A DNA stretch of 64,000 nucleotides from Bacteroidota bacterium (GCA_027484685.1 JAIXSO010000026.1:18406-82405); one strand, 5' to 3'. Positions 33,601 through 56,828 are shown, numbered from the stretch's first letter. Numbers and translations: made by a program. Notes: a model not told the origin generated them from the sequence alone.

Positions 33601-36600
33601 CATCCTTTGCTCCTTTAAGCGGTACAGTAGGTTCTTCCGTAACTATTATAGGTTCTGGTTTTAACACTACACCTGCCAATAATATTATATTTTTTGGAGC
33701 AACACGTGCAACTGTAACTACCTCAACCACAAATAGTTTAACAGTAACAGTGCCAACAGGTGCCACTTTTGCACCAATAACATTAATAGATACAGGAGTT
33801 AATTTTACTGTACACAGTCCCCAGTTTTTCAATCCAATATTTAGCCCTAGTAAAGCTATTATTACCACTTCAGATATTGCGGCAAAATTAGATTTTTCGA
33901 CCGGTACAAGTCCTCGATCAATAGCCATTGGCGATATTGATGGAGATGGCAAATCTGATTTGGCAATCGCTAATACAAACAGTAAAACTGTTTCAATTTA
34001 TCGTAATACTGGCAAAATTGATACGGTAAATTTTGCAACAAAGGTAGATTTTACTACACTTTGGAGTCCTCTATCGGTTGCTATTGGAGACATAGATGGA
34101 GATGGAAAAGCTGATTTGGTAATTGCAAATGCAGGTAGTGATATTGTTTCTATATTTCGAAATACAAGTAGTAGTGGCATTATTAATTTTGCATCAAAGG
34201 TTGATTTTATTACAGGGTCGCTTCCTTATTCAGTAGTAATTGGAGATATAAATGGAGACGGTAAACCAGATTTGGCATTAACTAATTATAATAGCAATAC
34301 TGTTTCAGTGTTACGCAATACGGGCTTAAAAGGTTCAATAAGTTTTGCCACCAAAGTAGATTTTGCAACAGGATCAAATCCTTGTTCGGTAGCTATTGGA
34401 GATATAGATGGGGATGGTAAACCTGATTTGGCGATTGCTAACACAGGCAATATCTATACTGTTTCTGTATTACGTAATACAGGTAGTAATAATTCGGTTA
34501 ATTTTGCCACAAAGACAGATTTCACTACGGGTTCAAATTCAAAGTCCATAGAAATAGGCGATATAGATGGAGATGGAAAACCCGATTTGGCTATAGGCAG
34601 TAATTCTGTTTCTATTTTACGCAATACGAGTAGTAGTGGTTCGATTAGTTTTGCAACAAGAGTAGATTTTGCATCAGTATCAACTCCTTATTCATTAAAA
34701 ATTGGTGATATAAATGGAGATGGCAAACCTGATTTGGCAATAATTAATCAAAGCAGCAATAAACTTTCTATATTACGTAATACAAGTATCAGTGGTACAG
34801 TAGATTTTGCAACAAAGGTAGATTTTGCCTCAGGTACAAATCCTCTTTCAATAGCCATTGGCGATATTGATGGGGATGGCAAATCTGATTTGGCGATAGC
34901 AAACGAAAACAATAATTCTGTCTCTATTTTAAGAAATTATCCTCAACCACCGCCTCCTACCATTAATTCATTCACTCCAACCAGCGCAGTTGTAGGTGCT
35001 TCAATTTCCATAACTGGTGTAGGTTTTAACACGGTACCTACAAAAAATATAGTGTTTTTTGGTGCAACTAAAGCAATTGTAACAGCAGCAACTGACACCA
35101 GTTTAATGGTATTGGTACCTATAGGTGCCTCTTTTGCACCAATAACTATATTAAATACTGCTAACACTTTATCAGCTTATAGTACACAATTTTTCAACCC
35201 AATATATAGTCCTAGTAAAGGAAGTATAACCACAAATGATATAACAACAAAGCAAGATTTTACAACTGGGCCGCAATCCAGAGCTGTAGCTATTGGAGAT
35301 TTGGATGGTGATGGCAAACCCGATTTGGCTGTAGTTAATAATGTTGGTGCTACTGTTTCCATATTAAGAAATACAGGAAGCATTGGTTCGGTTAGTTTTG
35401 CAACCAAGGTTGATTTTTCTACGGGTACAGATCCTGAGTCAATATCTATTGGAGATATAAACGGAGATGGTAAACCTGATTTAGTTGTGACAAATTTTGG
35501 AAGCAGCACTGTTTCAGTTTTTCGCAATATAAGCATGAATGGAGCAATTAGTTTTGCTACAAAAATCGATTTTGCAACAGGTACAAATCCCAGTTCAGTG
35601 GCCATTGGCGATATTGATAAAGATGGCAAACCAGATTTGATAGTAACTAATTATAATAATGGCTTTAACTCTATTTCTGTCTTTCGTAATACCAGTAACA
35701 GTGGTACAATTAGCTTTGATTTAAAGGTAGATTTTGAAACAGGAGGTAATCCGGCCTCAGTAGCTATTGGCGATATTGATGGAGATAATAAACCCGATTT
35801 AGCAATAGCCAATCAAATGAGCAATACTGTTTCAATACTACGGAATACAAGTATTTATGGAACAGTTAGTTTTGCAACAAAGTTAGATATTACAATGATT
35901 TCTGAGCCTTTTTCAATTGCCATTGCTGACTTAGATGGCGATGGAAAATCTGATTTAGCAATAGCAAATGTTAGCAGTATTGGAAAATCAGTTTCTGTCT
36001 TAAGGAATACCAGTAGCATTGGTTCAGTGAGTTTTGCATCAAGGGTAAATTTTTCGGCAAATGGAGATCCTTATTCAGTATCCGCTGGCGATCTAGATGG
36101 AGATGGAAAGCCTGATTTGGCAATCGCTAGTTTTAGCAGTTCAGTTTCAGTATTGCGAAATACAAGTGTGAGCGGTACTATTAATTTTGCTACTAGGGTT
36201 CCTTTTACAACAGGCTCATTTCCACGATCAGTAGCATTGGGTGATATAGATTGTGACGGCAAACTTGATTTGGTGGCATCTAACAGTAACAGCCAAACTG
36301 TTTCCGTATTGCGTAATAACCCACAATTTCCTCCCACAATTTCCACAATAGGTAATTTAACACCATTTATTTCTTGTACTGGCAGTGCTTCAGCACAGCA
36401 AACATTTACAGTAACTGGAACTAATTTAATAGCAAATTTAATGGTAATACCACCAATAGGCTTTGAGATAAGTACTACTTCTGGTTCAGGTTTTGGAAAC
36501 AGTGTTAGTTTATCTCCTTCCTCAGGCACAATAAACGCAATCTTATATATACGTTTAACCAATTCGGTAACAGGTTCGCCAAGTGGAAATATAGTTTGTG

Positions 36601-37787
36601 CCTCAACAATTGCTGATACACAAAATGTAGCTGTATATGGTTTAGTAAAAGCAACATCAACTAGTACTACAAATATTTCAGTCTGCTCAAGTACATTACC
36701 TTTTACTTGGAATAGTAGAGCATATAATTCAAGTAGAACAGATACTGTTTATTTAACCAATTTCGTTGGTTGTGATAGTATTACCATTTTAAAATTAACA
36801 GTTAAACCTACAAGTTCATCAACTTCTAATATAAGCATTTGCCCTAGTGCATTGCCTTATACTTGGAATGGAAGAACATATAATTCCAATAGCATAGATA
36901 CGGTTTATTTAACCAATTCCGTGGGTTGCGATAGTATTACTATTTTAAAATTAACTGTAAAACCTACAAGTTCATCAACTTCTAATATAAGCATTTGTCC
37001 TTCAGCACTGCCTTATACTTGGAATGGAAGAACATATAATTCCAATAGCATAGATACTGTTTATTTAACTAATTCAGTAGGTTGCGATAGTATTACCATT
37101 TTAAAACTAACAATAAAACCAATTAGTACTTCAACAAATAACATAAGTATTTGTCCGAGCGCATTGCCTTATACATGGAATGGATTAATCTTTAACGAAT
37201 CAGGAACGCAGACCAAAACAGGTTTAACTAATTCGGTTGGATGTGATAGTTCAGCAACTTTAAATTTATCGGTAAATCCAATTCCAGCAACTTCCAATAT
37301 TACAGGCTTTACCAATGTAGCAAGGTTAGATACAGCTACTTATTCGGTAATAGGAACAAGTGGTTCAGTTTTTAATTGGGCAACTACAAAAGGATTGGTT
37401 CAAACAGGCGCGGGTACAAATCAAATAAAAGTAAAATGGAATACAGCCGGAATGGATACTTTAAAAGTTACTGAAACTTCTAATCAAGGTTGTGTTGGTT
37501 CACAAAAAACACTATTGGTTAATATTGGTCCTGCTACCGGAATGAATGAAATCAATGCAAGTAATAATATACTGGTTTATCCAAATCCATTTAACGAAAC
37601 CATATTTATTTCATTGCTTAATAATTCAGGTTTGAACAAAGCTATTTTATATGATTTATTAGGTAAAGAGGTTTTAACTACCCATAAAAGTGAAATAGAT
37701 GTGAAAGAGTTAAAATCTGGCGTTTATTTGATAATGGTGATTGATAATAATGGCAATAGTTATAGCCAAAAATTGATTAAAAATTAG
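30651..37787 (+). CDS. Giant T9SS-secreted protein with 4 x [IPT/TIG domain + 7 FG-GAP repeats] plus C-terminal Cys-containing repeats and a type-A CTD
   Basis: 2378 aa with signal peptide. Twenty-eight 'IGD(I/L)(D/N)GDGKPDL' FG-GAP calcium-binding motifs in four sets of seven. Each set is preceded by 'P(T/S)ITSFAP..G....I.G.GFNTT' IPT-like domains. Four ~57-aa 'ISICPSALPYTWNG...VGCDSITILKLTVKP' repeats. C-terminal 'VYPNPF...GVYLIMVIDNNG' T9SS CTD. Antisense ORFs inside the gene are repeat artefacts. Confidence 0.85.
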   Translation: MVVNDELLNLNVKNTNSMIKSIKSLSNQYFLDLKSKKVKTTTFFRIFLLFGLLFSLQCVIAQPTITSFAPLSGKVGDTITILGNSFNTTAANNIVFFGATRATVSTATSTSLTVTVPIGATFAPITLLNTATGLATYSTQFFNPVFSPSKGSITLNDISPKVNFTVGWAPKTVSIGDIDGDGKPDLAIANEYDNTISVLRNTGNNGTVSFALKVDFATGSNPKIVAIGDINGDGKPDLVTNNVSNNSVSVLRNTSSSGTISFATKVDFTTGGNPQSVTIGDLDGDGKPDLAIASWSSNTISVLRNTGSSGTISFATRVNFTTGSGPYSLTIGDIDGDGKPDLAVVNRDNNTISVLRNTSSSGIMNFATKVDFTTGSSPYQLAIGDIDGDGKLDLTTANIDSDSVSVLRNTSSSGTVSFATKVDFTTGTNSEPFALAIGDIDGDGKPDLAVATSGYNTIAVLRNISSSGTVSFGAKVDFGTSLSPSFISIGDIDGDSKPDLLITNNGINGTVSVLRNNPQPPPSPPTITSFAPSSCAIGATFSITGTGFNTTPANNVVFFGATRATVITASATSLTVIVPIGANFAPITVLNTLTALVAYSTQFFKPIFSPTKGSITSTDLAAKVDFATNSATKSVAVGDIDGDGKTDLAIVNGGNNTVSVLRNTGSSGLVNFATKVDFTTGINPWSVAIGDIDGDSKPDMVIANYNSNTVSILRNTASIGVLSFALKVDFTSGIHPKSVTIGDIDGDGKPDLVIANDSSNSVSVLRNTGSSGFINFAPKVDFATGSFPSSVAIGDIDGDEKPDLAIPNDSSNTVSVLRNISISGTVSFAIKVDFGTGTQPTSLALGDINGDGRLDLAIANRSSNTISVLRNISTSGVLSFAPKVDFATGSSPRFVAIGDMDGDGKSDLAITNQGSNTISILRNTSNNATVSFTTKVDFITNTQPNTLAIGDIDGDGKPDLAIENGGNTVSLYRNNPQIFPPSITSFAPLSGTVGSSVTIIGSGFNTTPANNIIFFGATRATVTTSTTNSLTVTVPTGATFAPITLIDTGVNFTVHSPQFFNPIFSPSKAIITTSDIAAKLDFSTGTSPRSIAIGDIDGDGKSDLAIANTNSKTVSIYRNTGKIDTVNFATKVDFTTLWSPLSVAIGDIDGDGKADLVIANAGSDIVSIFRNTSSSGIINFASKVDFITGSLPYSVVIGDINGDGKPDLALTNYNSNTVSVLRNTGLKGSISFATKVDFATGSNPCSVAIGDIDGDGKPDLAIANTGNIYTVSVLRNTGSNNSVNFATKTDFTTGSNSKSIEIGDIDGDGKPDLAIGSNSVSILRNTSSSGSISFATRVDFASVSTPYSLKIGDINGDGKPDLAIINQSSNKLSILRNTSISGTVDFATKVDFASGTNPLSIAIGDIDGDGKSDLAIANENNNSVSILRNYPQPPPPTINSFTPTSAVVGASISITGVGFNTVPTKNIVFFGATKAIVTAATDTSLMVLVPIGASFAPITILNTANTLSAYSTQFFNPIYSPSKGSITTNDITTKQDFTTGPQSRAVAIGDLDGDGKPDLAVVNNVGATVSILRNTGSIGSVSFATKVDFSTGTDPESISIGDINGDGKPDLVVTNFGSSTVSVFRNISMNGAISFATKIDFATGTNPSSVAIGDIDKDGKPDLIVTNYNNGFNSISVFRNTSNSGTISFDLKVDFETGGNPASVAIGDIDGDNKPDLAIANQMSNTVSILRNTSIYGTVSFATKLDITMISEPFSIAIADLDGDGKSDLAIANVSSIGKSVSVLRNTSSIGSVSFASRVNFSANGDPYSVSAGDLDGDGKPDLAIASFSSSVSVLRNTSVSGTINFATRVPFTTGSFPRSVALGDIDCDGKLDLVASNSNSQTVSVLRNNPQFPPTISTIGNLTPFISCTGSASAQQTFTVTGTNLIANLMVIPPIGFEISTTSGSGFGNSVSLSPSSGTINAILYIRLTNSVTGSPSGNIVCASTIADTQNVAVYGLVKATSTSTTNISVCSSTLPFTWNSRAYNSSRTDTVYLTNFVGCDSITILKLTVKPTSSSTSNISICPSALPYTWNGRTYNSNSIDTVYLTNSVGCDSITILKLTVKPTSSSTSNISICPSALPYTWNGRTYNSNSIDTVYLTNSVGCDSITILKLTIKPISTSTNNISICPSALPYTWNGLIFNESGTQTKTGLTNSVGCDSSATLNLSVNPIPATSNITGFTNVARLDTATYSVIGTSGSVFNWATTKGLVQTGAGTNQIKVKWNTAGMDTLKVTETSNQGCVGSQKTLLVNIGPATGMNEINASNNILVYPNPFNETIFISLLNNSGLNKAILYDLLGKEVLTTHKSEIDVKELKSGVYLIMVIDNNGNSYSQKLIKN
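36640..37260 (+). repeat. Intragenic ~171-bp tandem repeats (4 copies; the two central copies almost identical at nucleotide level)
   Basis: Near-identical DNA blocks at ~36781-36950 and ~36951-37120 encode the Cys-containing 57-aa modules. Confidence 0.75.
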
Positions 37788-37873
37788 GTAATTATGGTGT
37801 AGTTATTTTATGTTCATGGTTGGTGTCCTAGCAATCATTCCAAATCGATTGGTGAGGACACTAGCCGAGGACT

Positions 37874-37969
37874 AAAGAAGAAATTAATGCCAAAGTTGTA
37901 GTAGCTATGCTTTTAACCATTGCCGGAGTTTGGCTAGTTGGGCGTAAAGGAAAAATAGCCAAGCAATAA
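37874..37969 (+). pseudogene. Orphan diverged copy of the 3' end of the EamA transporter gene
   Basis: Translates to 'KEEINAKVVVAMLLTIAGVWLVGRKGKIAKQ*' versus EamA C-terminus 'KEEINAKVVVAMLLTILGVYLVGKKAKVKEAK*'. About 80% nucleotide identity over the first ~70 nt. An upstream in-frame TAG and no start codon. Confidence 0.7.
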
Positions 37970-38021
37970 TTTTACAAAACATTTTTAGTTTAGTTTTGCT
38001 TTAATTTATAAACTTACTACT

Positions 38022-39356
38022 ATGAAAAAAATTTATATTTTGTTCTGTTTTATTTTATTGAACGTTAACGTATTTTCTCAAAATGGATTATATGGTATTG
38101 TAAGAAAAAATTATTATTCAATTGTTAGAAATCCTACAGATACTAATCAAACATTCGAACAATTTGATTCTGCAACAATTCGATTAGGGTTTTTAAATCC
38201 GTCATCAGGACAAGTTAGTAATATAGGCAGCAATTTATACAATCAAACAATTAACCTAACTGGAGCTGCTTTAAACCCTTACGACAGCACGTTTATTTAT
38301 ATTGGAGCAGATAAAATTAATACAATTGATTTAAATACGGGTGTAATTATTAATAGTATTCCTTTGTCAAATCCTATACAAAGTAGTTACTTTGATAACT
38401 TTAGGTTTAATAATTCGGATAGTACCATGTATGGTTTAGCGCGAAGAAGTTATTTGGATCCAATTACTAACACCTTAGTTGGTGAAGTTTACATGGCTAA
38501 AGCAAATACCAATACAGGCGTAATAACGCAAATTTCTCCAAGTTCTGTTGGAAATGGATATGCATTATTGGGCAGTTCAATTGATCCTTATCAAATGGTT
38601 TATTATTATTCAGATGGAACACATATTATTGGATTAGATATTTATACTGGCTTGGTTTACAGTAAGGTGGTAATTAACAATGTGTTTGGAACAACGTTTG
38701 GAAACTTTACTTACAATTGTAATGATAATAAAATATATGGGCTAATTGGAAAGAACTATTTTAGAACTGTAACTGATTCACTTGGTACTTATGAAATACT
38801 GGATTCAAATACACAAACTTTGGGCACTATCAATCCTAATTCTGGAATTGTAACTCAAGTTTCGGCCAATACATTAAGTAAAGTTGGATATACAATAAAT
38901 GGAGGTTCTACAATTGACCCTAATACCAACACTTATTATTTTAATATAGGTACCAAAGTAATTGGTGTATCAATTTTTGATGGAACTATAGTTAGCGATC
39001 CTAGTTTTATTTTTTCTGATGGACAGTATTTTGATTTAATAAGAAACTTACAAAGCTGCTATTCGGCTTATTCATTGAGAAAAAAACCAACAAATGTTGC
39101 CTCTGTTAATTCTCAAAAAAATAATATACAAGTTTATCCTAATCCGTTTAAAAATACGGTAAGTGTAAATGGAGGTAATCAACAAATAGGAACAGTGGAG
39201 ATTTACTCTATATCAGGTAGTTTAATAAAGAAACAAAACATAACTGAAAATGGCCAAGAAATTGAACTTTCAGAATTAAAAAGTGGAATTTATTTTTTAA
39301 AAATAAATACTCCAGAAAACGAAAGTACCTTTATAAAAATTTGCAAATCGGAGTAA
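38022..39356 (+). CDS. T9SS-secreted protein with type-A C-terminal sorting domain
   Basis: Signal peptide. C-terminal 'VYPNPFKNTVSV...GIYFLKINT' CTD. Confidence 0.7.
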   Translation: MKKIYILFCFILLNVNVFSQNGLYGIVRKNYYSIVRNPTDTNQTFEQFDSATIRLGFLNPSSGQVSNIGSNLYNQTINLTGAALNPYDSTFIYIGADKINTIDLNTGVIINSIPLSNPIQSSYFDNFRFNNSDSTMYGLARRSYLDPITNTLVGEVYMAKANTNTGVITQISPSSVGNGYALLGSSIDPYQMVYYYSDGTHIIGLDIYTGLVYSKVVINNVFGTTFGNFTYNCNDNKIYGLIGKNYFRTVTDSLGTYEILDSNTQTLGTINPNSGIVTQVSANTLSKVGYTINGGSTIDPNTNTYYFNIGTKVIGVSIFDGTIVSDPSFIFSDGQYFDLIRNLQSCYSAYSLRKKPTNVASVNSQKNNIQVYPNPFKNTVSVNGGNQQIGTVEIYSISGSLIKKQNITENGQEIELSELKSGIYFLKINTPENESTFIKICKSE

Positions 39357-39388
39357 AACTGATTAATCGTAATAAAACAATCACATTC

Positions 39389-39422
39389 AAATCCCGAAGC
39401 GAAAGCAGAGGGATTTTTTTGT
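39389..39422 (+). terminator. Rho-independent terminator
   Basis: 'aaatccc'...'gggattt' stem followed by a T7 run. Confidence 0.6.
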
Positions 39423-39473
39423 TAATAATTAATTTTAACAAATTAATTCAAACTATTCAATAAAATAATAAGT

Positions 39474-42400
39474 TTGAAATTGTTACAAACAAGCATAATG
39501 AATAAAGAAACCCATATTCAAAATTATTTTAAAACGGTTAAAGCTGCTTCAAATGAACTTTCTAAAAAGGAAGCTTTTAAAGATTTATTGAATAGAATAT
39601 ATGCTAATGAGGAGTCTTATACAAAACTGATTGATAGAATGACCTTAGGTTCTGAAAAAGCCATTTTTAATATTCCAAAAGGTGATAAAAATAAAACAGG
39701 AAGGGCTGATACCAAATACAATCAAGTAATTATTGAATTTGAAAAAGACTTACGTAAAACTGGAGAACATGCCAAAGAACAATTAGCTGAATACTTTTTT
39801 GGAACTTATAAAAGTGGAGGAGATTATAACCTAACCTTAATTGCTACCGATTGCATAACTTGGAAAATATTTGTACCAAGTTTTGAAACCTTTGAAAACA
39901 TAAGCTCAATAAAGCTACGCGAAGTAAAATTGGAAGAGTTAAAAGGTGGAACTTTTGTTTTAAGCGAAAATAATGGCAATGATTTCTTTTATTTTATCGA
40001 CCGTTATTTGTTTAGAACGGAAGCTCAAAAAGCTACTTTAGAATATATTGAACAAGATTTTGGTTTACAATCTGCTGTATTCATCAACTCATTTAAACAA
40101 CTAAAAGAACATTTTAATGATGTAAAAAAATATGGTGAAGTGCAAGTAAGCTTTGAACAATGGCGTAAGTTTTTGTTTATAGCTTATGGTATAGAAGAAT
40201 TACCAGAAAATATATTTTTAGTACATACTTATTTAAGTGTTTTTGCTAAGATGCTTGCCTATACTGTTCTTACTGATGATGATTTTATTGACGACCAAGA
40301 GCTAGAGCAAATTATTAATGGAAGTATTTTTGAAACATTAAATGTAAAAAATTTAACTGACAATGACTTTTTTCATTGGGTAAAATCTGAACGAAGTTTT
40401 AGAGAACTAAAATCTGCTTTTAGGCAAATAGCCCTGGAGTTAAGTAATTATAGTTTTAAAAATGTAGATGAAGATGTTTTGAAAGGGGTGTATCAAAACT
40501 TAATTGATATTGATACTCGTCACGCTTTGGGTGAATACTACACACCCGATTGGCTTTGTGAAATGGTGGTAAGAGAAATGCCAATAAAAACAGATAGTAA
40601 AACATTAGACCCTAGTTGTGGAAGTGGTTCGTTTTTAAGAACAGTTATAGATAAACTTAAAAATGAAAATAAAACAATAACAGCAAATGAATTGGCAAAT
40701 AATGTTTATGGCATAGATATTCATCCATTAAGTGTGCAAATAGCTAAAACTACCTTACTTGTTGCTATTGGAAAAGATTTAATTCGAAAATCGAAAAAAC
40801 CAGTTAGTTTAAACGTATTTTTATCAAATACCATATTGATTCCTGATGGTGTAAAAAACCTATTTGGTGGTGATTTTACCTTAACTATTGATAGAGAAAA
40901 ATATAAACTAAATACCCAAGTTTTAGAAGATGATAAACTATTCGATGAAGCATTAAATGTAGCAGATGCTTTGGCAGAGTTAACCTTGGGTAAAAAGGCT
41001 GTTGACCAAACTACTTTTATTAATAATTTAAAGAAAAGTTATCCTTATGCACCTATTCCTGTATTAAACGATAGCTTGTATAAAATATATTTAGGTTTGA
41101 AAAGAACCAAAGAAAGCGGTAGAGATAGTATTTGGAAGTTTATACTTCAAAATATGTACAAGCCATATTTTTTAAAAGAAAGATTCGATTTTATAGTGGG
41201 TAATCCGCCTTGGTTTACTTGGAGTAGCGTTAAAAAAGAGGATTACCAAGATGAACTTAAAACACTTGCAGAAAGCTACTAAGTAATGCCTGAACGCAAA
41301 GCCAATTTTCCACACTTGGAAATCGCAGCCATTTTTTTAGCGCATTGCAGCAATTATTTTTTAAAAGAAAATGGTCAATTAGCATTTGTATTACCAAGAA
41401 GCTTTATGAGTGCTGACCAACATGAAAATACACGAAATGGCAAAGCCAAAGGATTTACCTTAACACAAATTTGGGATTTGGATGCTGTTACTAATTTATT
41501 TAGGGTGCCTAGTTGTGTTTTATTTTCCGAAAAGAAATTAAAAACTTCAGTAAGCCAATACCACAAAGGTATAAATGGAATAAGCTTTAAGGGGCGAATA
41601 AAAAAACATAATTGTAGTATAAAGGAAGTAGAAGATGCTGGAGTATTAACTCAAACCGAAAATACATTTTACTATACTACATTGGGAAAAAGCAGTGCTT
41701 TTAGTGTTTCTAAGCAATCAAAAAAAGGAAGTCAAAATAAAACGAGTTATTACAAAACTTCGTTTAAACAGGGAGCTACATTAGTGCCTCGAAATTTTTA
41801 TTTTGTAGAGCTAACACAAGAAGAGCCCGAAGATTGGGACGATAGGTTGATAAATATAAAAACCAGTTCTGAAAGCATGAAACAAGCCAAAAAACCTTGG
41901 AATGAAATAGACATGCACGGACAAATAGATAGCCAATATTTTTTTAGAACAGCTATTTCTAAAAATGTTTTGCCTTTTGTTTTGTATAATCCCGAATTGG
42001 TAATACTTCCTATAAAAATAAACCAAGAAAATAAACAAATAACCATGCAAACGCATGAGGAAATTTTGAAGGACGGTTACTATATCACAGCGCAATGGTT
42101 TAAGAATGTAGAAAATGTTTGGAATATTCTTAAAACTGAAAAAAATGAAAAAATTTCAAGCGGAAATTATTTGAATTGGCAAAACAAATTAACCGATCAA
42201 GATTTAAATAAAAAGTACATGGTACTTTATACTGCAAGTGCAAAAAATGCAAATAGCTGTGTGGTAAAACGGGAAGATTTAAAATTGGAATTTATAGTAG
42301 AAAGTACAACTTATGTATTTTTTTCAAACAATAAAAATGAAGCTTATTATGTTTCTGCTTTACTAAATTCAAGTGTTCCAAATGAATTAATGAAAGACTT

Positions 42401-42671
42401 TCAAGCAAAGGGATTATTTGGAGAACGCCATGTACATAAAAAAATATTAGACATTCCTTTTCCACAATTTAACGAAATGAATCAAGCTCATATTGATTTG
42501 GCTTTACTATCAGAAAGCTGCCATACCAAAGCTGCCAAATGGATGAGAGAAAACAATATTCCTGATAATTTAGACCCAATAAAACTAGGCAAAGTTAGGG
42601 TTCAAATAAAAGCTTATTTGAATGAGGAGATGAAAAAGATAGATAAGTTGGTGAAGGGGGTGATAAAATGA
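39474..42671 (+). pseudogene. MmeI-like single-chain (type IIG/IIL-like) N6-adenine DNA methyltransferase/RM gene interrupted by one in-frame TAA (41280-41282)
   Basis: ORFs 39474-41282 and 41286-42671 share a frame. Motif I 'LDPSCGSGSFL', 'GEYYTP', motif IV 'GNPPWF' lie before the stop. Conserved post-catalytic 'LAFVLP' plus ~350 aa TRD-sized tail lie after it. N-terminal 'D...IIEFEKDL' segment is reminiscent of a PD-(D/E)xK nuclease head. Confidence 0.7.
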
Positions 42672-42678
42672 TAGGTTA

Positions 42679-43830
42679 ATGTTTAAAGTTTTACATTGGA
42701 AAAAAATTATTTTTAATATTATTCGAGTTGTCATCATGAAAAAAGAATCATTGTTTTATAACCCAACATTTAGTGTTTTTATCCAAGCTTTTATTGTAGT
42801 TTGTTTAGGTTTATGCACTATTCCAATAATTGGTTTTGTATTTTCTTCAATATTTAAAATAGCTCCAAATAATTTAGGAGATACAATAGGAGGAACAATG
42901 GGGCCATTCGTTGCTTTATTTGCTGCCTTGTTAACTTTCTTGGCTTTTTATGTTCAATATCAAGCAAATCAGTCGCAGAGGAACGACATAAAAAGAGAAA
43001 GATTTGAAACACAATATTATGAAATAATTAAATTGCACAGAGAAAATGTTTCGGAAATAAAAATAAGAAGTGATAATGGTTCTATTGAAAGTAGATATGC
43101 ATTTGTAACAATGTTCAATGAATTTAAATTTATTTATCGTTTTTGTTATGACACGTATTTTAGAATGGTGGAAAGAGGAAAAATTGAGATATTAGATAAT
43201 GAAGAGTTGATTGTTAAAGAAAAAATTCTCAATATGTCTTACATTCTATTTTTTATAGGTGTAGGTCCAAATTCATTTGATTTAAGTTTTGCTTCTGCTT
43301 CTGAAAAATCTAAAAAATTACACAAAGAATGTTATGAAGAATTAGAAAAATTGAAGTTAAAACATGTTGATAATAACTATTTTTCAAAATTTAATTTTGA
43401 AAAATTAGGAATAGAAATGGTACTTCAATTAAAATACAAACCTTTTGGAGGGCATATGTCGAGATTAGGACATTACTACAGGAATTTATATATGGCAATA
43501 AAATATGTAGATTCACAAGACTTTTTAAGTGAAAATGAAAAATATAGTTACATTAAAATAATTAGGGCTCAATTGTCAAATCATGAACAAGCCCTAATAT
43601 ACTACAACGTAATTTCTGGTTTTGGTTGGCGTTGGATAGAAAAAGAGAAAAACTATTTAGTAAAATATCGACTCATTCATAATGTACCTACAACATTATT
43701 AGAATTTGCAATTAAACCAAGAGACCATAAAATAATTGGTGAACAAATAAAAGAGTGGGAAGAAGTCAAGAATAAAAATCACAAAGAAGACTTAAATGGA
43801 TGGACACCTTTTTTTGAATGGGAAGAATAA
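42679..43830 (+). CDS. Two-TM membrane-anchored protein, possible abortive-infection-like protein
   Basis: Two N-terminal TM helices then a ~290-aa cytoplasmic domain. Architecture resembles the 'putative phage abortive infection protein' family. Likely true start at 42736 (MKKESL). Confidence 0.4.
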   Translation: MFKVLHWKKIIFNIIRVVIMKKESLFYNPTFSVFIQAFIVVCLGLCTIPIIGFVFSSIFKIAPNNLGDTIGGTMGPFVALFAALLTFLAFYVQYQANQSQRNDIKRERFETQYYEIIKLHRENVSEIKIRSDNGSIESRYAFVTMFNEFKFIYRFCYDTYFRMVERGKIEILDNEELIVKEKILNMSYILFFIGVGPNSFDLSFASASEKSKKLHKECYEELEKLKLKHVDNNYFSKFNFEKLGIEMVLQLKYKPFGGHMSRLGHYYRNLYMAIKYVDSQDFLSENEKYSYIKIIRAQLSNHEQALIYYNVISGFGWRWIEKEKNYLVKYRLIHNVPTTLLEFAIKPRDHKIIGEQIKEWEEVKNKNHKEDLNGWTPFFEWEE

Positions 43831-43842
43831 AAAAATTATAAA

Positions 43843-44802
43843 ATGGAAAAGAAATATTCAGTCTTTGTAAGTTCAACTTATGAAGATTTAAAAGAACATA
43901 GAGAAAAAGTAATATATAGTTTAGTTGAAAATAATTATTTTCCTGTTGCTATGGAATTTTTCCAAGCTTCAAGCGATAATAAATGGGAGCGAATAAAAAA
44001 GTTAATTAAAGATTGTGATTATTTTATTTTGATAGCTGGCGGTAGGTATGGAGAAATTCAATACGATGATAAAAGTTTTATTGAGTTGGAGTATGATTTT
44101 GCATTAGAAAATAATATTCCTGTAAATGTTTTTGTTGTAAATTCAATTGACGAACTTAGAAGTAAAGATGTTGATCATGGAGAAAAAAGAGAAAGTTTAA
44201 ATAGGTTTATCAGGAAAATTCAGGATGATAAAATATCAAAATCATACAAAAATGTTGATGATTTAAAAGCTGTAGTAGTTAATTCATTAAATCGATTAAT
44301 TATAGATAGTCCAAGAGTTGGTTGGATAAGGGGTACTACCTATAAAATTAAAGAAACTTTAAATGAGAGAATTGATTTCGAAATAGACATTACTGAAATT
44401 ACCAAATGGATAAATACTGAAAATATTACAATAGAATATAACCCAATTGGTAAAGATTATTCCATATTTTCTTTTGAAAATTTTTCTTCCGAATCTCTTG
44501 CTTTAAGTGTAAAAGAAGTTTGGGATATACTTCGATTAAAATGTTTGCAAGAACTTCCTGAAACGGAAATAGGAAAGAGTTTAAATTTGCTCATCGACAG
44601 AAAAATAAAGGTTAGTATAAAAGATAAATTTTCATTTAATGACACCAATATTTTTAAAGATTCATTTGATAATGTAATAAGAGTTTTTGTTGATAGAGGT
44701 TTAATTGAACCTTCTTTAAAAAGTAAATTAAGTATTAAAAATCAAAAAGATTGCTATTGGAAGTTATCTTCATTGGGAGAAGTTATCAATAGTGGAAAGT
44801 AA
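43843..44802 (+). CDS. DUF4062 domain protein with uncharacterised C-terminal domain
   Basis: N-terminus 'YSVFVSSTYEDLKEHREKV...FPVAMEFF...DCDYFILIAGGRYGEI...ELEYDFA' matches the DUF4062 consensus. Confidence 0.7.
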   Translation: MEKKYSVFVSSTYEDLKEHREKVIYSLVENNYFPVAMEFFQASSDNKWERIKKLIKDCDYFILIAGGRYGEIQYDDKSFIELEYDFALENNIPVNVFVVNSIDELRSKDVDHGEKRESLNRFIRKIQDDKISKSYKNVDDLKAVVVNSLNRLIIDSPRVGWIRGTTYKIKETLNERIDFEIDITEITKWINTENITIEYNPIGKDYSIFSFENFSSESLALSVKEVWDILRLKCLQELPETEIGKSLNLLIDRKIKVSIKDKFSFNDTNIFKDSFDNVIRVFVDRGLIEPSLKSKLSIKNQKDCYWKLSSLGEVINSGK

Positions 44803-44825
44803 AAATAACTTTAATAATTATTTTT

Positions 44826-45923
44826 ATGGATAAACTCATTCCAACATTTACTGATATCAGTAAATGGAACATAAACGTATATACTAATACGGGAGGTACA
44901 CGTAGCAAGCAAATTGCGGTGCATCCTGAAACTGATAAGGAATATTTTTTTAAAGGTTCTAAAGTAATTAAAGATACCAATGAAATACGTTATCCTACTG
45001 AATTTTGGTCTGAAATAGTTTCGTCAAAAATAGGTCAATATTTAGGTTTCGATATGCTTGATTATAATATTGGATTTAACCAAAATAATCAATTGCAAAA
45101 AATTGGTTGTCTTTCGAAATCAATGATTGAAAACTCTGAAAATAGATTAACAGAAGGAAAAATGTATTTGATGGGTTTTAATTCAAATTACAATCCAAAT
45201 TTGAAGGAACATCAGAGTTTATATACTTTTCAATTCATAAGTGAATCTCTTATAAGTTTTGATTTTGAACTATTTATCAATAAGGTAATAGAAGTTATAA
45301 TCTTTGATAGTATAATTGGCAATTCTGATAGGCATCAAGAAAATTGGGGAATAATTACTAACTATAACCACACCATAAGGGGTATAGATGCACATTTAGA
45401 AACTGAAGTTAAGAATTTTTTTACAAAACAAAAATTTCGTGTAGCTAAATGGTATTTAAAGCTAATTTCTAAAGCACAGATTAATATGAAAAAAATTCCA
45501 AAATCAATTTTATCTCAGCAATCATCATTTGCTCCAAATTTATTTGCTCCAATATATGATAGCGGTTGTTGCTTAGGGAGAGAAATTGAAGAGGAAAGAT
45601 TAAATAAAATGTTGCTAGATAATAATATGTTAGAAGCTTACGTTAGAAAAGGTGAATCAGAAATTCATTGGGATGGGTTTGAGAAAAAAAAGAAGCATTT
45701 TGAGTTAATTAATTTGGTTAAAGAAATACATAAATACCAAGTTTGTGAAGTTATTGATAGGGTAGTGAATAAATTCAAGAATGAAGATATACAAACAATA
45801 ATATTTAATATTGACAGAAATATTCCTCCTCATTTAAGCCAATATAAATTAGCAGATAATAGAAAAGAGTTAATGAATAAAATTATAAATTTGCGCATTG
45901 AAAAGTTGAAAGAGATAAGATGA
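44826..45923 (+). CDS. HipA/HipT-like serine/threonine kinase (toxin-type kinase core lacking the HipA N-subdomain)
   Basis: Catalytic-loop-like 'IIGNSDRHQENWGII' and 'FAPIYDSGC' correspond to HipA '(I)GNTD.H.KN(F/W)' and 'AP.YD' motifs. 365 aa. Confidence 0.6.
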   Translation: MDKLIPTFTDISKWNINVYTNTGGTRSKQIAVHPETDKEYFFKGSKVIKDTNEIRYPTEFWSEIVSSKIGQYLGFDMLDYNIGFNQNNQLQKIGCLSKSMIENSENRLTEGKMYLMGFNSNYNPNLKEHQSLYTFQFISESLISFDFELFINKVIEVIIFDSIIGNSDRHQENWGIITNYNHTIRGIDAHLETEVKNFFTKQKFRVAKWYLKLISKAQINMKKIPKSILSQQSSFAPNLFAPIYDSGCCLGREIEEERLNKMLLDNNMLEAYVRKGESEIHWDGFEKKKKHFELINLVKEIHKYQVCEVIDRVVNKFKNEDIQTIIFNIDRNIPPHLSQYKLADNRKELMNKIINLRIEKLKEIR

Positions 45924-46573
45924 AAGAGATAGGAAACATACATTTGTGTTGGCGTCAAGCAAAAGGATCCAATAGGATTCCCATAGGTACTATTAAACAT
46001 AGTGTTACAGGTGGAGTACGTTTCTCTTATAATCAGAATGAAGTAGCAAAAGCAAGAAAATTAGGTTTTCAGCATTACGAAGGATTTCCAGATATAACAA
46101 AGGTGTATGATGAAAATGTGCTAGAAATATTTGGACAGAGGTTAATTAAAAGTGAACGTTCTGACACAAGTGCCTTTTATGAATTTTGGGGAATAGATGC
46201 CCAATATAAAGATAACGATTTCTATATGCTTGCTTATACTCAAGGACTTTTACCAACCGATAACTATGAGTTTTTGGCAGACTTTCACCCAATGCCTAAT
46301 CTATCGTTTGTTTCTGAAATTACAGGTTTAACTGAAGCTAAGTTAGAAGCTGATTTGTTAAAAGTTGGAGATAAATTGACTTATAAACGAGAGCCAAATA
46401 ATGTCTTTGATAATAAAGCAATAGGTCTATACTTAGGAGAATTGTATTTAGGCCATGTTAAATTAATTCATAGTAGAGTGTTTTATAAAACAAATACCTT
46501 ATTAAAAGTTAGTGTTCATAATATTGAAAAGAATGGTTTCTTGAAAAGGGTATTTATTAAGATAAATAGTTAG
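45920..46573 (+). CDS. HIRAN-domain protein
   Basis: C-terminal 'LKVGDKLTYKREPNNVFDNKAIGLYL..LGHV' fits the HIRAN consensus (REP.NPYD.NAI.V....LG(Y/H)V). Start overlaps the kinase stop (ATGA). Confidence 0.65.
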   Translation: MKEIGNIHLCWRQAKGSNRIPIGTIKHSVTGGVRFSYNQNEVAKARKLGFQHYEGFPDITKVYDENVLEIFGQRLIKSERSDTSAFYEFWGIDAQYKDNDFYMLAYTQGLLPTDNYEFLADFHPMPNLSFVSEITGLTEAKLEADLLKVGDKLTYKREPNNVFDNKAIGLYLGELYLGHVKLIHSRVFYKTNTLLKVSVHNIEKNGFLKRVFIKINS

Positions 46574-46723
46574 AATTAAATAATTACCAAACTTTCTTAA
46601 ATCTCTATAAACGTTAAAAAATTGCGCTTTTTACTTTTGAAAGCTCAATTAATCATTGAAACTGAATCAAACTTTTTTTTGGCTAAGCTATCACCTAAGT
46701 TTGTGTGTAATATGGTTGTTTGT

Positions 46724-47585
46724 ATGAAAAAAATGAACTTGTTGGGGCTGATGGTTTTATGGTCTGTGTTTTCAACTGCTCAAATTATTCCTAATGGTGG
46801 TTTTGAAAATTGGACCACAACTGGCAATTATGCTAATCCTGATGGATGGTTTACTTTTAACGCTACGTTTTCTACCATTAATGTTTTTACTGTTGAAAAA
46901 GGAACACCGGGCGCTACTGGCAATAGTTATGCAAAAATTACTTCAAAAAATATTGGCGATAATTTGTTTCCTGGAGCTTTATTAATGGGTTCATTGGTAA
47001 ACAATGAAGTAATTCCTGGTATGGCCATTAATACTAAACCAGCATTTTTACTTGGAAAATACCAATCTAAAATTGGTAAAGACGATACTGCTTTGGTAAT
47101 AGTGCAGTTTACCAAATGGAATAATTTAACCAATACAAGAGAATTAGAAGGGATTGGTATTTTAGATTTTATAGACCTAAATACCGACACTTGGACTGAA
47201 TTTATAGTGAGCATGGATTATTTTGGAAACATTACTCCCGATTCGTGTTCCATAACAATTACCTTAGGCAATTCACCTCCAGCCTCAGATAACTTTTTTG
47301 CTGTTGATGATCTAATTTTTTCAAACACATTGAATTCTGTAAATGAAATAAATAAAATTACAACGCAAGTTTATCCCAATCCTAACGATGGTAAGTTTCT
47401 ATTAACTCAACAGCAAATATGAGCTATATTCAAATAACCAATATTTTAGGTGAAGTAGTTTTTTCTGAAAATATAAATGGTAATTCTGTTCCAATTACTT
47501 TAAATAATTTGGCAGCTGGATTGTATTTTTATTCCATTACTACTGAAAATAATAAGGTTATAAAAGGAATGATTACTATTAATTG
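46724..47585 (+). pseudogene. T9SS cargo gene with its C-terminal sorting domain in a different frame (frameshift or sequence error near 47400-47420)
   Basis: Main ORF ends '...QVYPNPNDGKFLLTQQQI*'. The continuation 'SYIQITNILGEVVF...GLYFYSITTENNKVIKGMITIN*' (47408-47585) completes a type-A CTD in the -1 frame. Confidence 0.5.
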
Positions 47586-47780
47586 ATTTTCGAATTTTAG
47601 TTTCATTTCTTTGTCCGAAATGTTTTTTTTATCAATTTAACAGAAAATAATCACTTGGAAAACCTAATATTGGCCGCAGGTAATGGAAAACAATTAGGTA
47701 AAGCCAAGGAGATGCTTGCAGCATGACTATTGAAGTTTTTTTTTGCCTATCAACTATATCAATTGTCACTATCCAAACAA

Positions 47781-47824
47781 AAAAACTCCTCACACTTTTA
47801 AAAAGTATGGGGAGTTTTTTTATG
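47781..47824. terminator. Bidirectional hairpin between convergent genes
   Basis: 'aaaaactcc'...'ggagttttt' stem with internal palindrome. A/T runs on both sides. Confidence 0.4.
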
Positions 47825-47946
47825 TTCTATTATAACTGGTTAACAATTTCCTTTAAACAAGGAAGGTGATTATAGCATGACTTTTGAATGGTTCTGTTTT
47901 TTAGCTCCAACTCAAAAATCATACAACAAAAATCACCAATCGGTTA

Positions 47947-50550
47947 TTATTTATTTTCGAATACAAATTGTTGACGGTCGTCTAGGCTAATAAGTATGTT
48001 TGAGTCTTTTTTAACTTTTCCTGCTAATATTTCTTTAGAAAGTTCGTTTAAAATTCTGCGTTGCATTACTCGTTTTAAAGGTCTTGCACCATATTGAGGG
48101 TCATAACCTAATTGGGCTAACCAATCTAAAGCTTCATCGGTAATATTTAGTTCAATTTGTTGGTGCAATAAAGTTCCTTTTAAGCTTTCAAACTGTAGGT
48201 TTACTATTTGTCTTACGTTTTCGCGGTTAAGCGGAGTAAACATAATAATATCGTCTATTCGGTTTAAAAACTCAGGACGAATTTGCCTGCGTAAAAGTTC
48301 CATTACATTGTTTTTAGCTTTGGCGGCTATGGCTTCTTTGTCTGCATCTATATCGTCCATTTGCTCAAAACTTTCTTGAATCAGGTGTGAGCCAATATTA
48401 GAAGTCATGATAACAATGGTATTTTTAAAATTAGCTGTTCTACCTTTGTTATCGGTTAAGCGGCCATCGTCCAACACTTGTAACAAAATATTAAATACAT
48501 CAGGATGTGCTTTTTCTATTTCATCTAATAACACAACTGAATACGGTCTTCTTCGAATGGCTTCGGTTAACTGTCCACTTTCTTCGTAACCTACATATCC
48601 TGGAGGCGCTCCAATTAAACGGCTTACCGTATGTTTTTCTTGGTATTCGCTCATGTCAATTCTTACCAAAGCACTTTCTTGGTTAAATAAAAACTCGGCT
48701 AAGGCTTTGGCTAATTCAGTTTTACCTACACCTGTAGTTCCTAAGAAAATAAATGAACCAATTGGTTTTTTAGGATCACTTAATCCAGCTCTACTTCTGC
48801 GTATGGAGTCACTAATAGCTGCAATGGCCTCTTCTTGTCCAACCACACGTTTGTGTAACTCTTCCTCTAAGTGCAATAATTTTTCACGTTCGCTTTGTAG
48901 CATCCTAGTAACCGGAATGCCTGTCCATCGAGCTACTACATCGGCTATATCGTCAGCAGTAACTTCTTCCTTTACCATTGGCGAATGGTTTTGAGCTTCG
49001 TCTAGTTTTGCTTTAAAAACATCCAAACGTTTTTCAGCTTCCTTAATTTTTCCGTAACGTATTTCTGCTACTTTAGCAAAATCGCCATTTCTTTCAAATT
49101 GGTCAGCTTGGTATTTTAAGTTTTCAATTTCTTTTTTGGTTGATTGAATACCTTCTACCACAACCTTTTCGCTTTGCCATTTGGCTTTTAGCTCGTTTCT
49201 ATCTTCTTGTAAATTGGCTATTTCTTCGGCCAATTTTTTTACTTTTTCATCATCGCCTTCGCGTTTAATAGCTTCTCTTTCAATTTCCAATTGCATAATT
49301 CTTCTATCCAATTGGTCTAATTCTTCAGGAACTGAATCTATTTCTAAGCGCAATTTTGCAGCAGCTTCGTCCATTAAATCAATGGCTTTATCTGGCAAAA
49401 ATCTGTCAGAAATATAACGTTGCGAAAGCTCCACCGCGGCTATAATTGCATCGTCTTTTATGCGCACTTTATGATGCACTTCGTAACGTTCTTTTAAACC
49501 ACGTAAAATAGAAATGGCATCTTCGGTATCAGGTTCTTCTACATATACTTTTTGAAAACGTCTTTCTAAAGCTTTGTCTTTTTCAATATAGCGTTGGTAT
49601 TCAGCTAACGTAGTTGCACCAATGCTGCGCAATTCGCCACGAGCCAAGGCAGGTTTTAAAATATTGGCAGCATCCATAGCACCTTCGCCTCCGCCTCCTG
49701 CGCCTACCAAGGTATGAATTTCATCTATAAATAAAATAATTTCACCATCGGCACTAATTACCTCCTTTACAACTGCTTTTAAACGCTCTTCAAACTCGCC
49801 TTTAAATTTTGCCCCAGCAATTAATGAACCCATATCTAATGAGTAGATCTTTTTTGTTTTTAAATTTTCGGGTACATCGCCATTCACTATTCTGTGCGCT
49901 AAGCCTTCGGCAATGGCAGTTTTACCTACACCAGGTTCGCCAATTAGCACAGGATTATTTTTGGTTCTGCGGCTTAAAATTTGTAAAACCCTGCGTATTT
50001 CTTCATCGCGACCAATTACAGGATCAAGCTTGCCTTTTTGTGCTAATTCGTTTAAGTTTTTAGCATATTTATTAAGCGAGTTGTATTGATTTTCGGCTGT
50101 TTGTGAGGTTACTTTTTGCCCACCACGCAATTCGTTAATGGCAGTTTTTAAGTCTTTTTCGGTTACACCAACATCTTTCAGCAAGGTTGCCACCGTGTTT
50201 TTTCCATCTAACAAAGCTAAAAAAATGTGTTCTACCGACACAAATTCATCGCCAAACTCCGTCAAATAACTTTGCGCTTTTAGTAAAGTTTGGTTACTAT
50301 CATTAGATAAGTATTGGCTTTGACCTTCTACCTTTGGGTAACTTTTTATAACAGCATCTAGGGTAGATTCAATTCTGCTTTGGTTAATGTTTAATTTTTT
50401 AAGTAAATAGGAGATAACATTTTCATCGGTTTGAATCAACGCTTTTAAAATATGCGCAGGTTCAATGGCTTGTTGACCATTTTTTAAAGCAATTTGAACT
50501 GCTTCCTGAACGGCTTCTTGCGATTTGATTGTGAAATTATTTAAATTCAT
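47947..50550 (-). CDS. clpB: ATP-dependent chaperone ClpB
   Basis: 867 aa. Two AAA+ modules with Walker A 'GEPGVGKT' and 'GTTGVGKT'. Coiled-coil middle domain. Confidence 0.95.
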   Translation of the reverse strand: MNLNNFTIKSQEAVQEAVQIALKNGQQAIEPAHILKALIQTDENVISYLLKKLNINQSRIESTLDAVIKSYPKVEGQSQYLSNDSNQTLLKAQSYLTEFGDEFVSVEHIFLALLDGKNTVATLLKDVGVTEKDLKTAINELRGGQKVTSQTAENQYNSLNKYAKNLNELAQKGKLDPVIGRDEEIRRVLQILSRRTKNNPVLIGEPGVGKTAIAEGLAHRIVNGDVPENLKTKKIYSLDMGSLIAGAKFKGEFEERLKAVVKEVISADGEIILFIDEIHTLVGAGGGGEGAMDAANILKPALARGELRSIGATTLAEYQRYIEKDKALERRFQKVYVEEPDTEDAISILRGLKERYEVHHKVRIKDDAIIAAVELSQRYISDRFLPDKAIDLMDEAAAKLRLEIDSVPEELDQLDRRIMQLEIEREAIKREGDDEKVKKLAEEIANLQEDRNELKAKWQSEKVVVEGIQSTKKEIENLKYQADQFERNGDFAKVAEIRYGKIKEAEKRLDVFKAKLDEAQNHSPMVKEEVTADDIADVVARWTGIPVTRMLQSEREKLLHLEEELHKRVVGQEEAIAAISDSIRRSRAGLSDPKKPIGSFIFLGTTGVGKTELAKALAEFLFNQESALVRIDMSEYQEKHTVSRLIGAPPGYVGYEESGQLTEAIRRRPYSVVLLDEIEKAHPDVFNILLQVLDDGRLTDNKGRTANFKNTIVIMTSNIGSHLIQESFEQMDDIDADKEAIAAKAKNNVMELLRRQIRPEFLNRIDDIIMFTPLNRENVRQIVNLQFESLKGTLLHQQIELNITDEALDWLAQLGYDPQYGARPLKRVMQRRILNELSKEILAGKVKKDSNILISLDDRQQFVFENK

Positions 50551-56291: not shown

Positions 56292-56367
56292 GCCACTTTA
56301 GCTCAGCTGGTAGAGCAACTGATTTGTAATCAGTAGGTCGCTGGTTCGATTCCGGCAAGTGGCTCCA
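56292..56367 (+). tRNA. tRNA-Thr (anticodon TGT)
   Basis: Cloverleaf drawn by hand. Acceptor GCCACTT/AAGTGGC, anticodon loop TTTGTAA, encoded CCA. Confidence 0.85.
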
Positions 56368-56393
56368 TTGTTATTGTAGCAATACAGTAATAA

Positions 56394-56474
56394 GGGGAGA
56401 TACCAGAGCGGCCAAATGGGACGGACTGTAAATCCGTTGAGAAATCTACGAAGGTTCGAATCCTTCTCTCCCCA
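56394..56474 (+). tRNA. tRNA-Tyr (anticodon GTA), class II with long variable arm
   Basis: Acceptor GGGGAGA/TCTCCCC, anticodon loop CTGTAAA, long variable arm, T-loop TTCGAAT. Confidence 0.85.
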
Positions 56475-56486
56475 CAAATATTACAA

Positions 56487-56559
56487 GCGAGAGTAGCTCA
56501 GTTGGTAGAGCGACAGCCTTCCAAGCTGTAGGTCGCGGGTTCGAGCCTCGTCTCTCGCT
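56487..56559 (+). tRNA. tRNA-Gly (anticodon TCC)
   Basis: Acceptor GCGAGAG/CTCTCGC, anticodon loop CTTCCAA, T-loop TTCGAGC. Confidence 0.85.

Positions 56560-56756: not shown

Positions 56757-56828
<72 letters not shown>

Follow-up and report, generated by a model that had tools for sequence, protein, structure and literature searches.

A DUF4062 gene in a Bacteroidota-like defence island probably encodes a divergent Swarozyc-type anti-phage protein

Here, we describe a gene located at positions 43843 to 44802 of a 64,000-nucleotide stretch of DNA from a Bacteroidota bacterium (GCA_027484685.1, JAIXSO010000026.1:18406-82405; the whole stretch is hereafter called the window). It encodes a DUF4062 protein of 319 amino acids (aa). 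Profile searches, structure models and analogy with characterised proteins make it quite likely that this protein is a divergent Swarozyc-type member of the DUF4062 (Evangelion) single-gene anti-phage systems, with a putative NADase head, a stalk and a predicted AUX sensor. The two reference proteins are KpSwz of Klebsiella pneumoniae, the founding Swarozyc defence protein (Osinski et al., bioRxiv 10.64898/2026.05.01.722283, May 2026), and Eva01, encoded on the S. aureus plasmid pMW2 and belonging to the Evangelion family, in which a single gene encodes a conserved DUF4062 core joined to a diversified, specificity-determining AUX (Ibarra-Chavez et al., bioRxiv 10.64898/2026.06.25.731849). A preliminary description of the locus had given the open reading frame (ORF) exactly these coordinates, and our analysis reproduced them, with the ORF on the plus strand and 319 aa long. 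The gene and its predicted parts are as follows; structure models were computed with AlphaFold2 (AF2), and their local confidence is given as the predicted local distance difference test (pLDDT).

43843..44802, plus strand: complete ORF (ATG start, 319 aa, TAA stop; full-length homologues), probable Swarozyc/Evangelion-type single-gene defence protein
43843..44337, plus strand: predicted TIR-like DUF4062 NADase domain, aa 1-165 (Pfam, AF2, Foldseek, phmmer against KpSwz)
43981..43989, plus strand: K47-W48-E49, the DUF4062 'Q/W/E' motif with Gln changed to Lys (alignment; published motif)
44089..44091, plus strand: codon of Glu83, the predicted catalytic Glu, in the motif S78-F79-I80-E-L-E83-Y84; equivalent to KpSwz E97 and Eva01 E87
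44320..44325, plus strand: invariant G160-W161 at the domain-stalk junction (family alignment); W161 is equivalent to KpSwz W176 and Eva01 W162
44353..44418, plus strand: predicted stalk helix, aa 171-192, poorly conserved (AF2 helix, pLDDT 51-73)
44428..44799, plus strand: predicted AUX (sensor) domain, aa 196-319 (AUX profile, AF2, Foldseek)
44458-44508, plus strand: predicted beta-hairpin in AUX, aa 206-222 (AF2 model)
44656-44790, plus strand: predicted winged-helix core of AUX, aa 272-316 (AF2 model, Foldseek)

The homologue search returned 221 proteins. More than 40 of them, 320-370 aa in length, align over 97-100% of the window protein, many at 28-36% identity, and the closest homologues are P0001 (99% identical) and P0002 (68% identical). 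We aligned 43 sequences of the family and used the alignment also as a profile. Conservation is found in the first ~165 residues, in a segment resembling a coiled coil and in the C-terminal block 'DFQTIKVQLRALGLI...TYWxLTPYG'. The start codon is correctly assigned, because the N-terminus of the window protein, MEKKYSVFVSSTYEDL, is near-identical to the family consensus MEKKYQVFVSSTYEDL. The gene is real and both of its halves are under purifying selection: comparison with the orthologue P0002 gave a ratio of nonsynonymous to synonymous substitution rates (dN/dS) of 0.13 for the DUF4062 head and 0.23 for the C-terminal AUX part. Members of the family are encoded at no fewer than 583 loci, counting one genome per species, in Bacteroidota, Pseudomonadota, Bacillota, Actinomycetota, Acidobacteriota and archaea. 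In addition, phrog_15411, a phage protein family of unknown function, matches aa 1-313 of the window protein (E-value of 1.8e-53), so phages carry the same architecture too.

The N-terminus is a DUF4062 domain, as the preliminary description had recognised. Pfam PF13271 matches aa 7-87 (positions 43861-44103) over model positions 2-82 of 82, with an E-value of 5.6e-25 and a score of 87.8 bits against a cut-off of 24.7 bits. The domain has reportedly been renamed NIR in a third preprint. In the AF2 model of the full protein (mean pLDDT 80.8), the head consists of beta-alpha repeats in a beta-alpha-beta, TIR-like topology with pLDDT values of 85-95, and the modelled TIR-like fold extends to approximately aa 165, past the end of the Pfam model. 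The top Foldseek matches of the head model are the TIR domains of SPARTA, SARM1, TIR-STING, AbTir and plant NLRs (probability 1.0, E-values from 6e-5 to 1e-3). Matches of the sequence itself to the TIR_2 model of Pfam (E-value of 0.032) and the ThsB model of PADLOC (4e-4) are marginal.

Comparison with solved structures extends the relationship to the whole protein. Searching the PDB with the family profile matched the entries 10wc/11cq/11cv ('KpSwz TIR/DUF4062', 326 residues) over positions 2-334 with an E-value of 1.2e-98, the sole end-to-end structure match. BLASTP aligned the window protein with KpSwz over aa 2-312 at 30% identity (E-value of 5e-36), with 39% identity in the head, 13% in the stalk and 21% in AUX; the corresponding phmmer alignment covers aa 2-177 (E-value of 1.1e-33) and ends at residue 177. 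The DUF4062 domain of KpSwz is a TIR-like NADase with the catalytic residue Glu97, which is needed for both defence and NADase activity, and its products are ADP-ribose (ADPR) and nicotinamide only (10.64898/2026.05.01.722283). In Eva01, F11, E87, W162 and AUX are required for defence, W162A and W162F abolish defence, and E87 is required for NADase activity as well (10.64898/2026.06.25.731849). The putative catalytic residue of the window protein, E83, is invariant across the 43 aligned sequences; in the alignment with PDB 10wc, whose chain is the E97A mutant, it falls on the mutated Ala. F8, W48-E49, Y84 and G160-W161 are also retained, and the Evangelion core motifs are present as F8, K47-W48-E49 and S78-F79-I80...E83-Y84, with the Q-to-K and T-to-I variants. 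Since mutating the equivalents of these retained key residues abolishes defence in KpSwz or Eva01, we count their presence in favour of the Swarozyc-type assignment.

The C-terminal half had been described as a domain of ~200 aa with no recognisable motif, possibly a new sensor or effector domain. The absence of a motif was borne out, as residues beyond ~90 have no match in Pfam, NCBIfam (June 2026) or PADLOC (2023), none of which has an AUX model. The size was not: the TIR-like fold runs to approximately aa 165 and is followed by the helix at 171-192, which leaves a separate domain of approximately 125 aa (196-319). Searches with the single sequence of aa 165-319 were equally unproductive. 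The PDB search gave nothing real, and an exhaustive phmmer search of 1.84 billion representative proteins returned only the protein's own cluster and one low-complexity protein. A word-indexed homologue search was empty and missed even the 99%-identical P0001, which we take as a limit of the method and not as evidence. Two kinds of match in these searches were discarded: PDB matches to designed helical repeats (DHT03), which arise from a low-complexity 'LQELPETEI' stretch, and the phmmer match to P0121 (repetitive, 444 aa), judged spurious. The failure of single-sequence searches on the C-terminus explains why no motif had been recognised there.

For an AUX profile of 138 positions, we used the C-terminal halves of 40 family members and excluded the window protein and P0002. 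The AUX of KpSwz scores 71.6 bits against this profile and the window C-terminus 35 bits (E-value of ~5e-7 at Z=1e6), with the match spanning positions 13-127, as compared with 6 bits or less for 400 shuffled sequences. The AF2 model of aa 196-319 (pLDDT 80.6, predicted template-modelling score (pTM) 0.73) comprises a beta-hairpin, two helices and a winged-helix core. A Foldseek search and a survey of homologues had both been suggested in the preliminary description as checks. Foldseek matched the AUX model exclusively to winged-helix proteins with weak scores, TubR being the best (E-value of 8.7e-3, TM-score ~0.45), followed by PadR/LmrR, MarR and the winged-helix domain of ORC. The search of viral structures in BFVD gave just weak, generic winged-helix matches, and positions 247-326 of the family profile match PadR-type winged-helix regulators in the PDB with E-values of 0.02-0.1. 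By the profile, 151 of 197 DUF4062 homologues carry a Swarozyc-type AUX (median 115 bits), with the window protein near the bottom of the range; the C-terminal domain is not new. The C-termini of the remaining 46 fall into 31 unrelated groups, in agreement with the published diversification of AUX.

Profile homology and structure modelling thus place aa 196-319 as a predicted divergent Swarozyc-type AUX domain, homologous to the AUX of KpSwz. Of the two roles proposed for this region, that of a sensor is the most likely, and the effector would instead be the DUF4062 head. This reverses the expectation that DUF4062 is fused to ATPase or effector modules: here, the DUF4062 domain itself appears to be the TIR-like NADase effector and the C-terminal part the sensor. 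Neither of the two results that would have refuted the preliminary description was obtained: the N-terminus is DUF4062, and the C-terminus matches no housekeeping domain.

The predicted stalk connects the two domains. In the family, its consensus is coiled-coil-like (EILxLxKEIxxL); Leu179 and Leu186, invariant in the family, are replaced by Phe and Ile in the window protein, and the model of the helix reaches a pLDDT of only 51-73. The stalk/linker (44338-44427, aa 166-195) is 30% identical to that of the P0002 orthologue (locus L081), with a noisy dN/dS of 1.24 over 30 codons. The segment may be either relaxed or diversifying, and 30 codons are too short for a firm conclusion.

KpSwz forms autoinhibited dimers that assemble into tetramers and hexamers and have intertwined necks and helical stalks, with W176 in the dimer neck. 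In its AUX, a helix-turn-helix/winged core is combined with an alpha-loop-beta module and with a hairpin anchor that carries W238/Y239 at its tip. Through AUX, 13 subunits form a crescent on the stem of the portal dodecamer of phage Bas14, and the portal-bound structure has been solved (10.64898/2026.05.01.722283). By analogy, the resting window protein would be an autoinhibited oligomer, as in KpSwz. During infection, its AUX domains would engage a multimeric phage component, for which the portal dodecamer is the KpSwz precedent. Binding to AUX may re-align the stalks and thereby bring the TIR-like heads into an active arrangement. NAD+ would then be cleaved with E83 as the catalytic residue, leading to abortive infection. 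The assignment as a Swarozyc-type protein is carried by the architecture, the key residues, the profile homology of both halves, the purifying selection, the lack of a conserved partner gene and the location in a defence island, the last two of which are described below. It is because of KpSwz and Eva01 that we attribute to it a putative NADase activity, oligomeric autoinhibition, a phage-derived trigger and an abortive-infection phenotype.

The gene had been placed inside a conflict cassette, and this placement holds. It is the fourth in a tightly packed, same-strand block at 39474-46573 that contains restriction-modification (RM), AbiC-like and PDC-M03 genes. The block has a G+C content of 26-30%, below that of its flanks, and resembles a defence island on the chromosome of a Bacteroidota-like genome. 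The spacing of the DUF4062 gene to its same-strand neighbours is 12 nt upstream and 23 nt downstream. A scan of 37700-48000 found 56 promoters versus 59 in shuffled sequence and 4 terminators versus 3.3, which is uninformative for a Bacteroidota-type genome. The neighbours in the block and the genes read in its flanks are the following.

39474..42671, plus strand: type IIG RM gene, one frame broken by a TAA at 41280-41282 into two ORFs (PADLOC; Pfam N6_Mtase, Eco57I)
42679..43830, plus strand: AbiC-like putative abortive-infection protein, 383 aa, with a hydrophobic N-terminus (Pfam putAbiC, E-value of 2.9e-22)
44826-45923, plus strand: PDC-M03A, HipA-like kinase (PADLOC, 2.8e-58)
45920-46573, plus strand: PDC-M03B, HIRAN-containing (PADLOC, 1.5e-23)
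38022-39356, flank: 444-aa ORF whose 90%-identical counterpart in the related locus L082 carries a Por_Secre_tail domain of the type IX secretion system (T9SS)
30651-37787, further upstream: 2378-aa repeat ORF with 'IGDIDGDGKPDLA...VSVLRNT' repeats (FG-GAP/VCBP-like), IPT-like modules and a C-terminal sorting-type tail, read from the translation
Downstream, minus strand: ClpB-like ORF, read from the translation alone

No partner gene is conserved, and the window gene is consistent with single-gene status. We examined 80 related loci, 37 with full-length and 43 with N-terminal-only homologues. AbiC-like, PDC-M03A or PDC-M03B neighbours occur in none of the 80, and clustering of the neighbouring ORFs found no family in more than 2 of the 37 full-length or 4 of the 43 N-terminal-only loci. 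Co-inheritance of the DUF4062 gene with PDC-M03 is seen in the close relatives L081-L083, where the L081 contig ends within M03A. Against L082 (GCA_013298895.1), identity is 90.6% in the RM region and 98.8% in the block of DUF4062 and PDC-M03. The slot between the RM and DUF4062 genes holds the 383-aa AbiC-like gene in the window and an unrelated gene of 277-278 aa, with a weak DpnII-MboI match, in L082 (5111-5947) and L081 (1210-2043). A slot swapped between flanks of 90.6% and 98.8% identity points to recent recombination within the island. The linkage of DUF4062 and PDC-M03 in the window lineage is best read, from these sequence comparisons, as probable shared descent of an island segment.

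Other features of the island and its surroundings were noted alongside. The two parts of the RM gene match successive stretches of a single PADLOC model, REase_MTase_IIG (6e-59 and 4e-14), and the TAA break parts the methyltransferase from the C-terminal target-recognition portion. L082, with its 90.6%-identical RM region, has CAA (Gln) at this codon and an intact ORF of 1057 aa, so the window copy is a nonsense mutant; it may be a pseudogene, a split enzyme or the product of a sequencing error. The PDC-M03A and PDC-M03B genes overlap by 4 nt. Their products match different parts of phrog_26212 (547 positions), at 38-180 and 328-538, so phages seem to carry PDC-M03 in a fused form. Five tRNA genes (Thr-TGT, Tyr-GTA, Gly-TCC, Thr-GGT, Trp-CCA) lie at 56292-58225, approximately 10 kb downstream and away from the island. 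In three of the N-terminal-only loci (L008, L017 and one more), a DUF4062 gene with another C-terminus lies between type I RM genes, whose Hsd labels were assigned from translations. The HsdS-like gene ends 9-41 nt upstream, and the HsdR-like gene of ~1100 aa starts 20-46 nt downstream in two of these loci; in the third, the distance is 1180 nt. As far as the translations indicate, this is an embedded-defence-gene arrangement.

Several observations weigh against the assignment of the window protein to the Swarozyc type. The window AUX lies at the far edge of the family (35 bits versus a median of 115), with 21% identity to the AUX of KpSwz, and single-sequence searches give no link between the two. 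The hairpin is much shorter than the portal-anchoring hairpin of KpSwz and lacks its Trp-Tyr tip (W238/Y239), and the C-terminal helix, which in KpSwz mediates side-by-side packing of AUX, is shorter by ~11 residues; the window protein may thus differ from KpSwz in trigger specificity and possibly also in the geometry of its assemblies. Because the family alignment was the input for the AF2 models, these lean to the family fold. Moreover, at positions where the other 41 sequences are 95-100% conserved, the window protein and P0002 carry replacements (E19H, G36A, Q47K, Y61F, S71E/D, T80I, W135Y and L285R/K). Two of these, Q47K in the Q/W/E motif and T80I in the acidic-SYT motif, fall in conserved core motifs, so the chemistry or regulation could differ. 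A serious contender, to which we give somewhat less than even chances, is that the Swarozyc-type NADase architecture is preserved but responds to another trigger, for instance a different protein of the virion or of replication in Bacteroidota phages, or a nucleic-acid intermediate to which the winged helix binds, as has been suggested for Eva01. The strong divergence of an AUX for which single-sequence search finds no relatives beyond its own cluster, together with the short hairpin and the cut C-terminal helix, would fit such a change. AUX regions have been described as diversified, and escaper mutations of Eva01 map to replication and recombination genes and not to the portal, with sensing of replication or recombination intermediates as the proposed mechanism (10.64898/2026.06.25.731849). 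The fold relatives of the window AUX are DNA-binding winged-helix proteins, and the homologue P0029 is annotated as a 'predicted transcriptional regulator'. However, among AUX domains of the Swarozyc type, a ligand is known for that of KpSwz alone, and this ligand is the portal protein and not DNA; the window AUX also aligns over nearly the whole AUX profile. That the window protein is catalytically altered or inactive, being a decayed copy or one repurposed, for example, as a winged-helix regulator, is improbable. E19H, Q47K, T80I and the replacement of five further near-invariant positions could be read in this way, and the nonsense mutation in the neighbouring RM gene suggests some decay of the island. 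On the other hand, all replacements are shared with the 68%-identical orthologue, and the ORF has no interruption and retains F8, W161 and the predicted catalytic Glu; the dN/dS values of 0.13-0.23 indicate long-term purifying selection and not decay.

We consider it slightly more improbable still that the window protein is part of a multi-gene system, for example as a ThsB-like TIR protein producing a nucleotide signal for the PDC-M03 pair or for the membrane AbiC-like protein. The weak ThsB (E-value of 4e-4) and TIR_2 (0.032) matches and the tight same-strand spacing could be taken as hints of one, as could the co-inheritance of DUF4062 with PDC-M03A/B in L082 and L083 (98.8% nucleotide identity) and the adjacency of DUF4062 and M03A in the 77%-identical L081. 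Some DUF4062 proteins indeed lie in operons with other enzymes (10.64898/2026.05.01.722283). Yet AbiC-like, M03A and M03B genes are missing next to the homologues in all 80 loci, where no neighbouring family is recurrent, close relatives carry different genes in the upstream slot, and PADLOC defines PDC-M03 as a stand-alone two-gene candidate. Furthermore, KpSwz and Eva01 act as single genes, KpSwz yields just ADPR and nicotinamide, and Pfam and PADLOC find no ThsA, SIR2 or Macro effector in the island. It is also unlikely, though less so than these two alternatives, that the window protein and P0002 form a functionally distinct Swarozyc subtype, with a phage component or assembly geometry other than the portal crescent of KpSwz, an altered core function and a functional association with PDC-M03. 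The grounds for this reading are an AUX that single-sequence searches miss, the short hairpin with no Trp-Tyr anchor and the cut C-terminal packing helix. In that case, E19H, Q47K and T80I could alter how the protein is autoinhibited, whether it prefers NAD+ or NADP+, or what it produces, and a stable linkage to the kinase and HIRAN proteins of PDC-M03 would be functional and not accidental.

The divergent Swarozyc-type single-gene system remains our preferred reading. The domain and the system were already described in the 2026 preprints, with solved structures, and the window reveals no new kind of system; the remaining novelty is the diverged sensor of this lineage and the altered 'invariant' core residues. 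What had been an unannotated 'DUF4062 domain-containing protein' now carries a testable prediction, by analogy, namely that it acts as a single-gene abortive-infection system that depletes NAD+ and relies on E83 for catalysis. The Swarozyc-type AUX is far more widespread and divergent than single-sequence searches suggest, and because Pfam, NCBIfam and PADLOC hold no AUX model, an AUX profile would improve the annotation of defence systems. As a divergent extreme under purifying selection, the window variant is a natural experiment on the AUX features that determine trigger specificity and on the core residues that cannot be dispensed with.

Among known systems, two were considered and set aside. 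Thoeris was rejected, as there is only a weak match to ThsB (E-value of 4e-4) and no ThsA, SIR2 or Macro match among the six island proteins in Pfam and PADLOC. The STAND/NACHT type of DUF4062 protein (TEP1-like, NWD1/2) does not apply either, because the window protein has 319 aa, no ATPase or repeat domain, and the architecture DUF4062-stalk-winged helix. With TIR NADase effectors (ThsB of Thoeris, TIR-APAZ of SPARTA, TIR-STING and SARM1), the window protein shares the predicted flavodoxin-like TIR fold and catalytic Glu and, by analogy, would share the logic of oligomerisation-activated NAD+ consumption. It differs from them in its marginal sequence similarity (TIR_2, E-value of 0.032) and in having no Argonaute, STING or ThsA partner in the window. 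KpSwz itself departs from these effectors, as its dimer interface is of the AB and not the AE type and its product is plain ADPR instead of a signalling isomer (10.64898/2026.05.01.722283). The likeness to PadR, MarR and TubR lies in the AUX core (aa ~272-316), a predicted winged helix whose Foldseek and profile matches are all of this type. In contrast to these regulators, to which the matches are weak, KpSwz uses the fold for protein-protein packing around the portal and not for binding operator DNA.

Swarozyc itself is the closest match. The window protein (319 aa versus ~339 aa for KpSwz) has the same order of a DUF4062 TIR-like head, a GW neck, a predicted helical stalk and an AUX with a hairpin and a winged core, and its predicted hairpin and winged helix fit the published description of the KpSwz AUX. 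The putative catalytic Glu (E83, equivalent to E97) and W161 (equivalent to W176) correspond, and both proteins are encoded by single genes in defence islands. Unlike KpSwz, the window protein has replaced residues that KpSwz shares with 41 relatives (E19H, Q47K, T80I and others), its hairpin is shorter and lacks the W238/Y239 anchor, its C-terminal helix is ~11 aa shorter, and its host is Bacteroidota-like and not enterobacterial. Swarozyc has been placed in a lineage separate from Eva01-04 (10.64898/2026.06.25.731849). The window protein fits the definition of the Evangelion family, with the published motifs F (F8), W-E (W48-E49), E-Y (E83-Y84) and W (W161) as the basis of comparison. Whereas Eva01 is encoded on an antimicrobial resistance (AMR) plasmid, the window gene is chromosomal, and its product groups with the proteins that carry a Swarozyc-type AUX.

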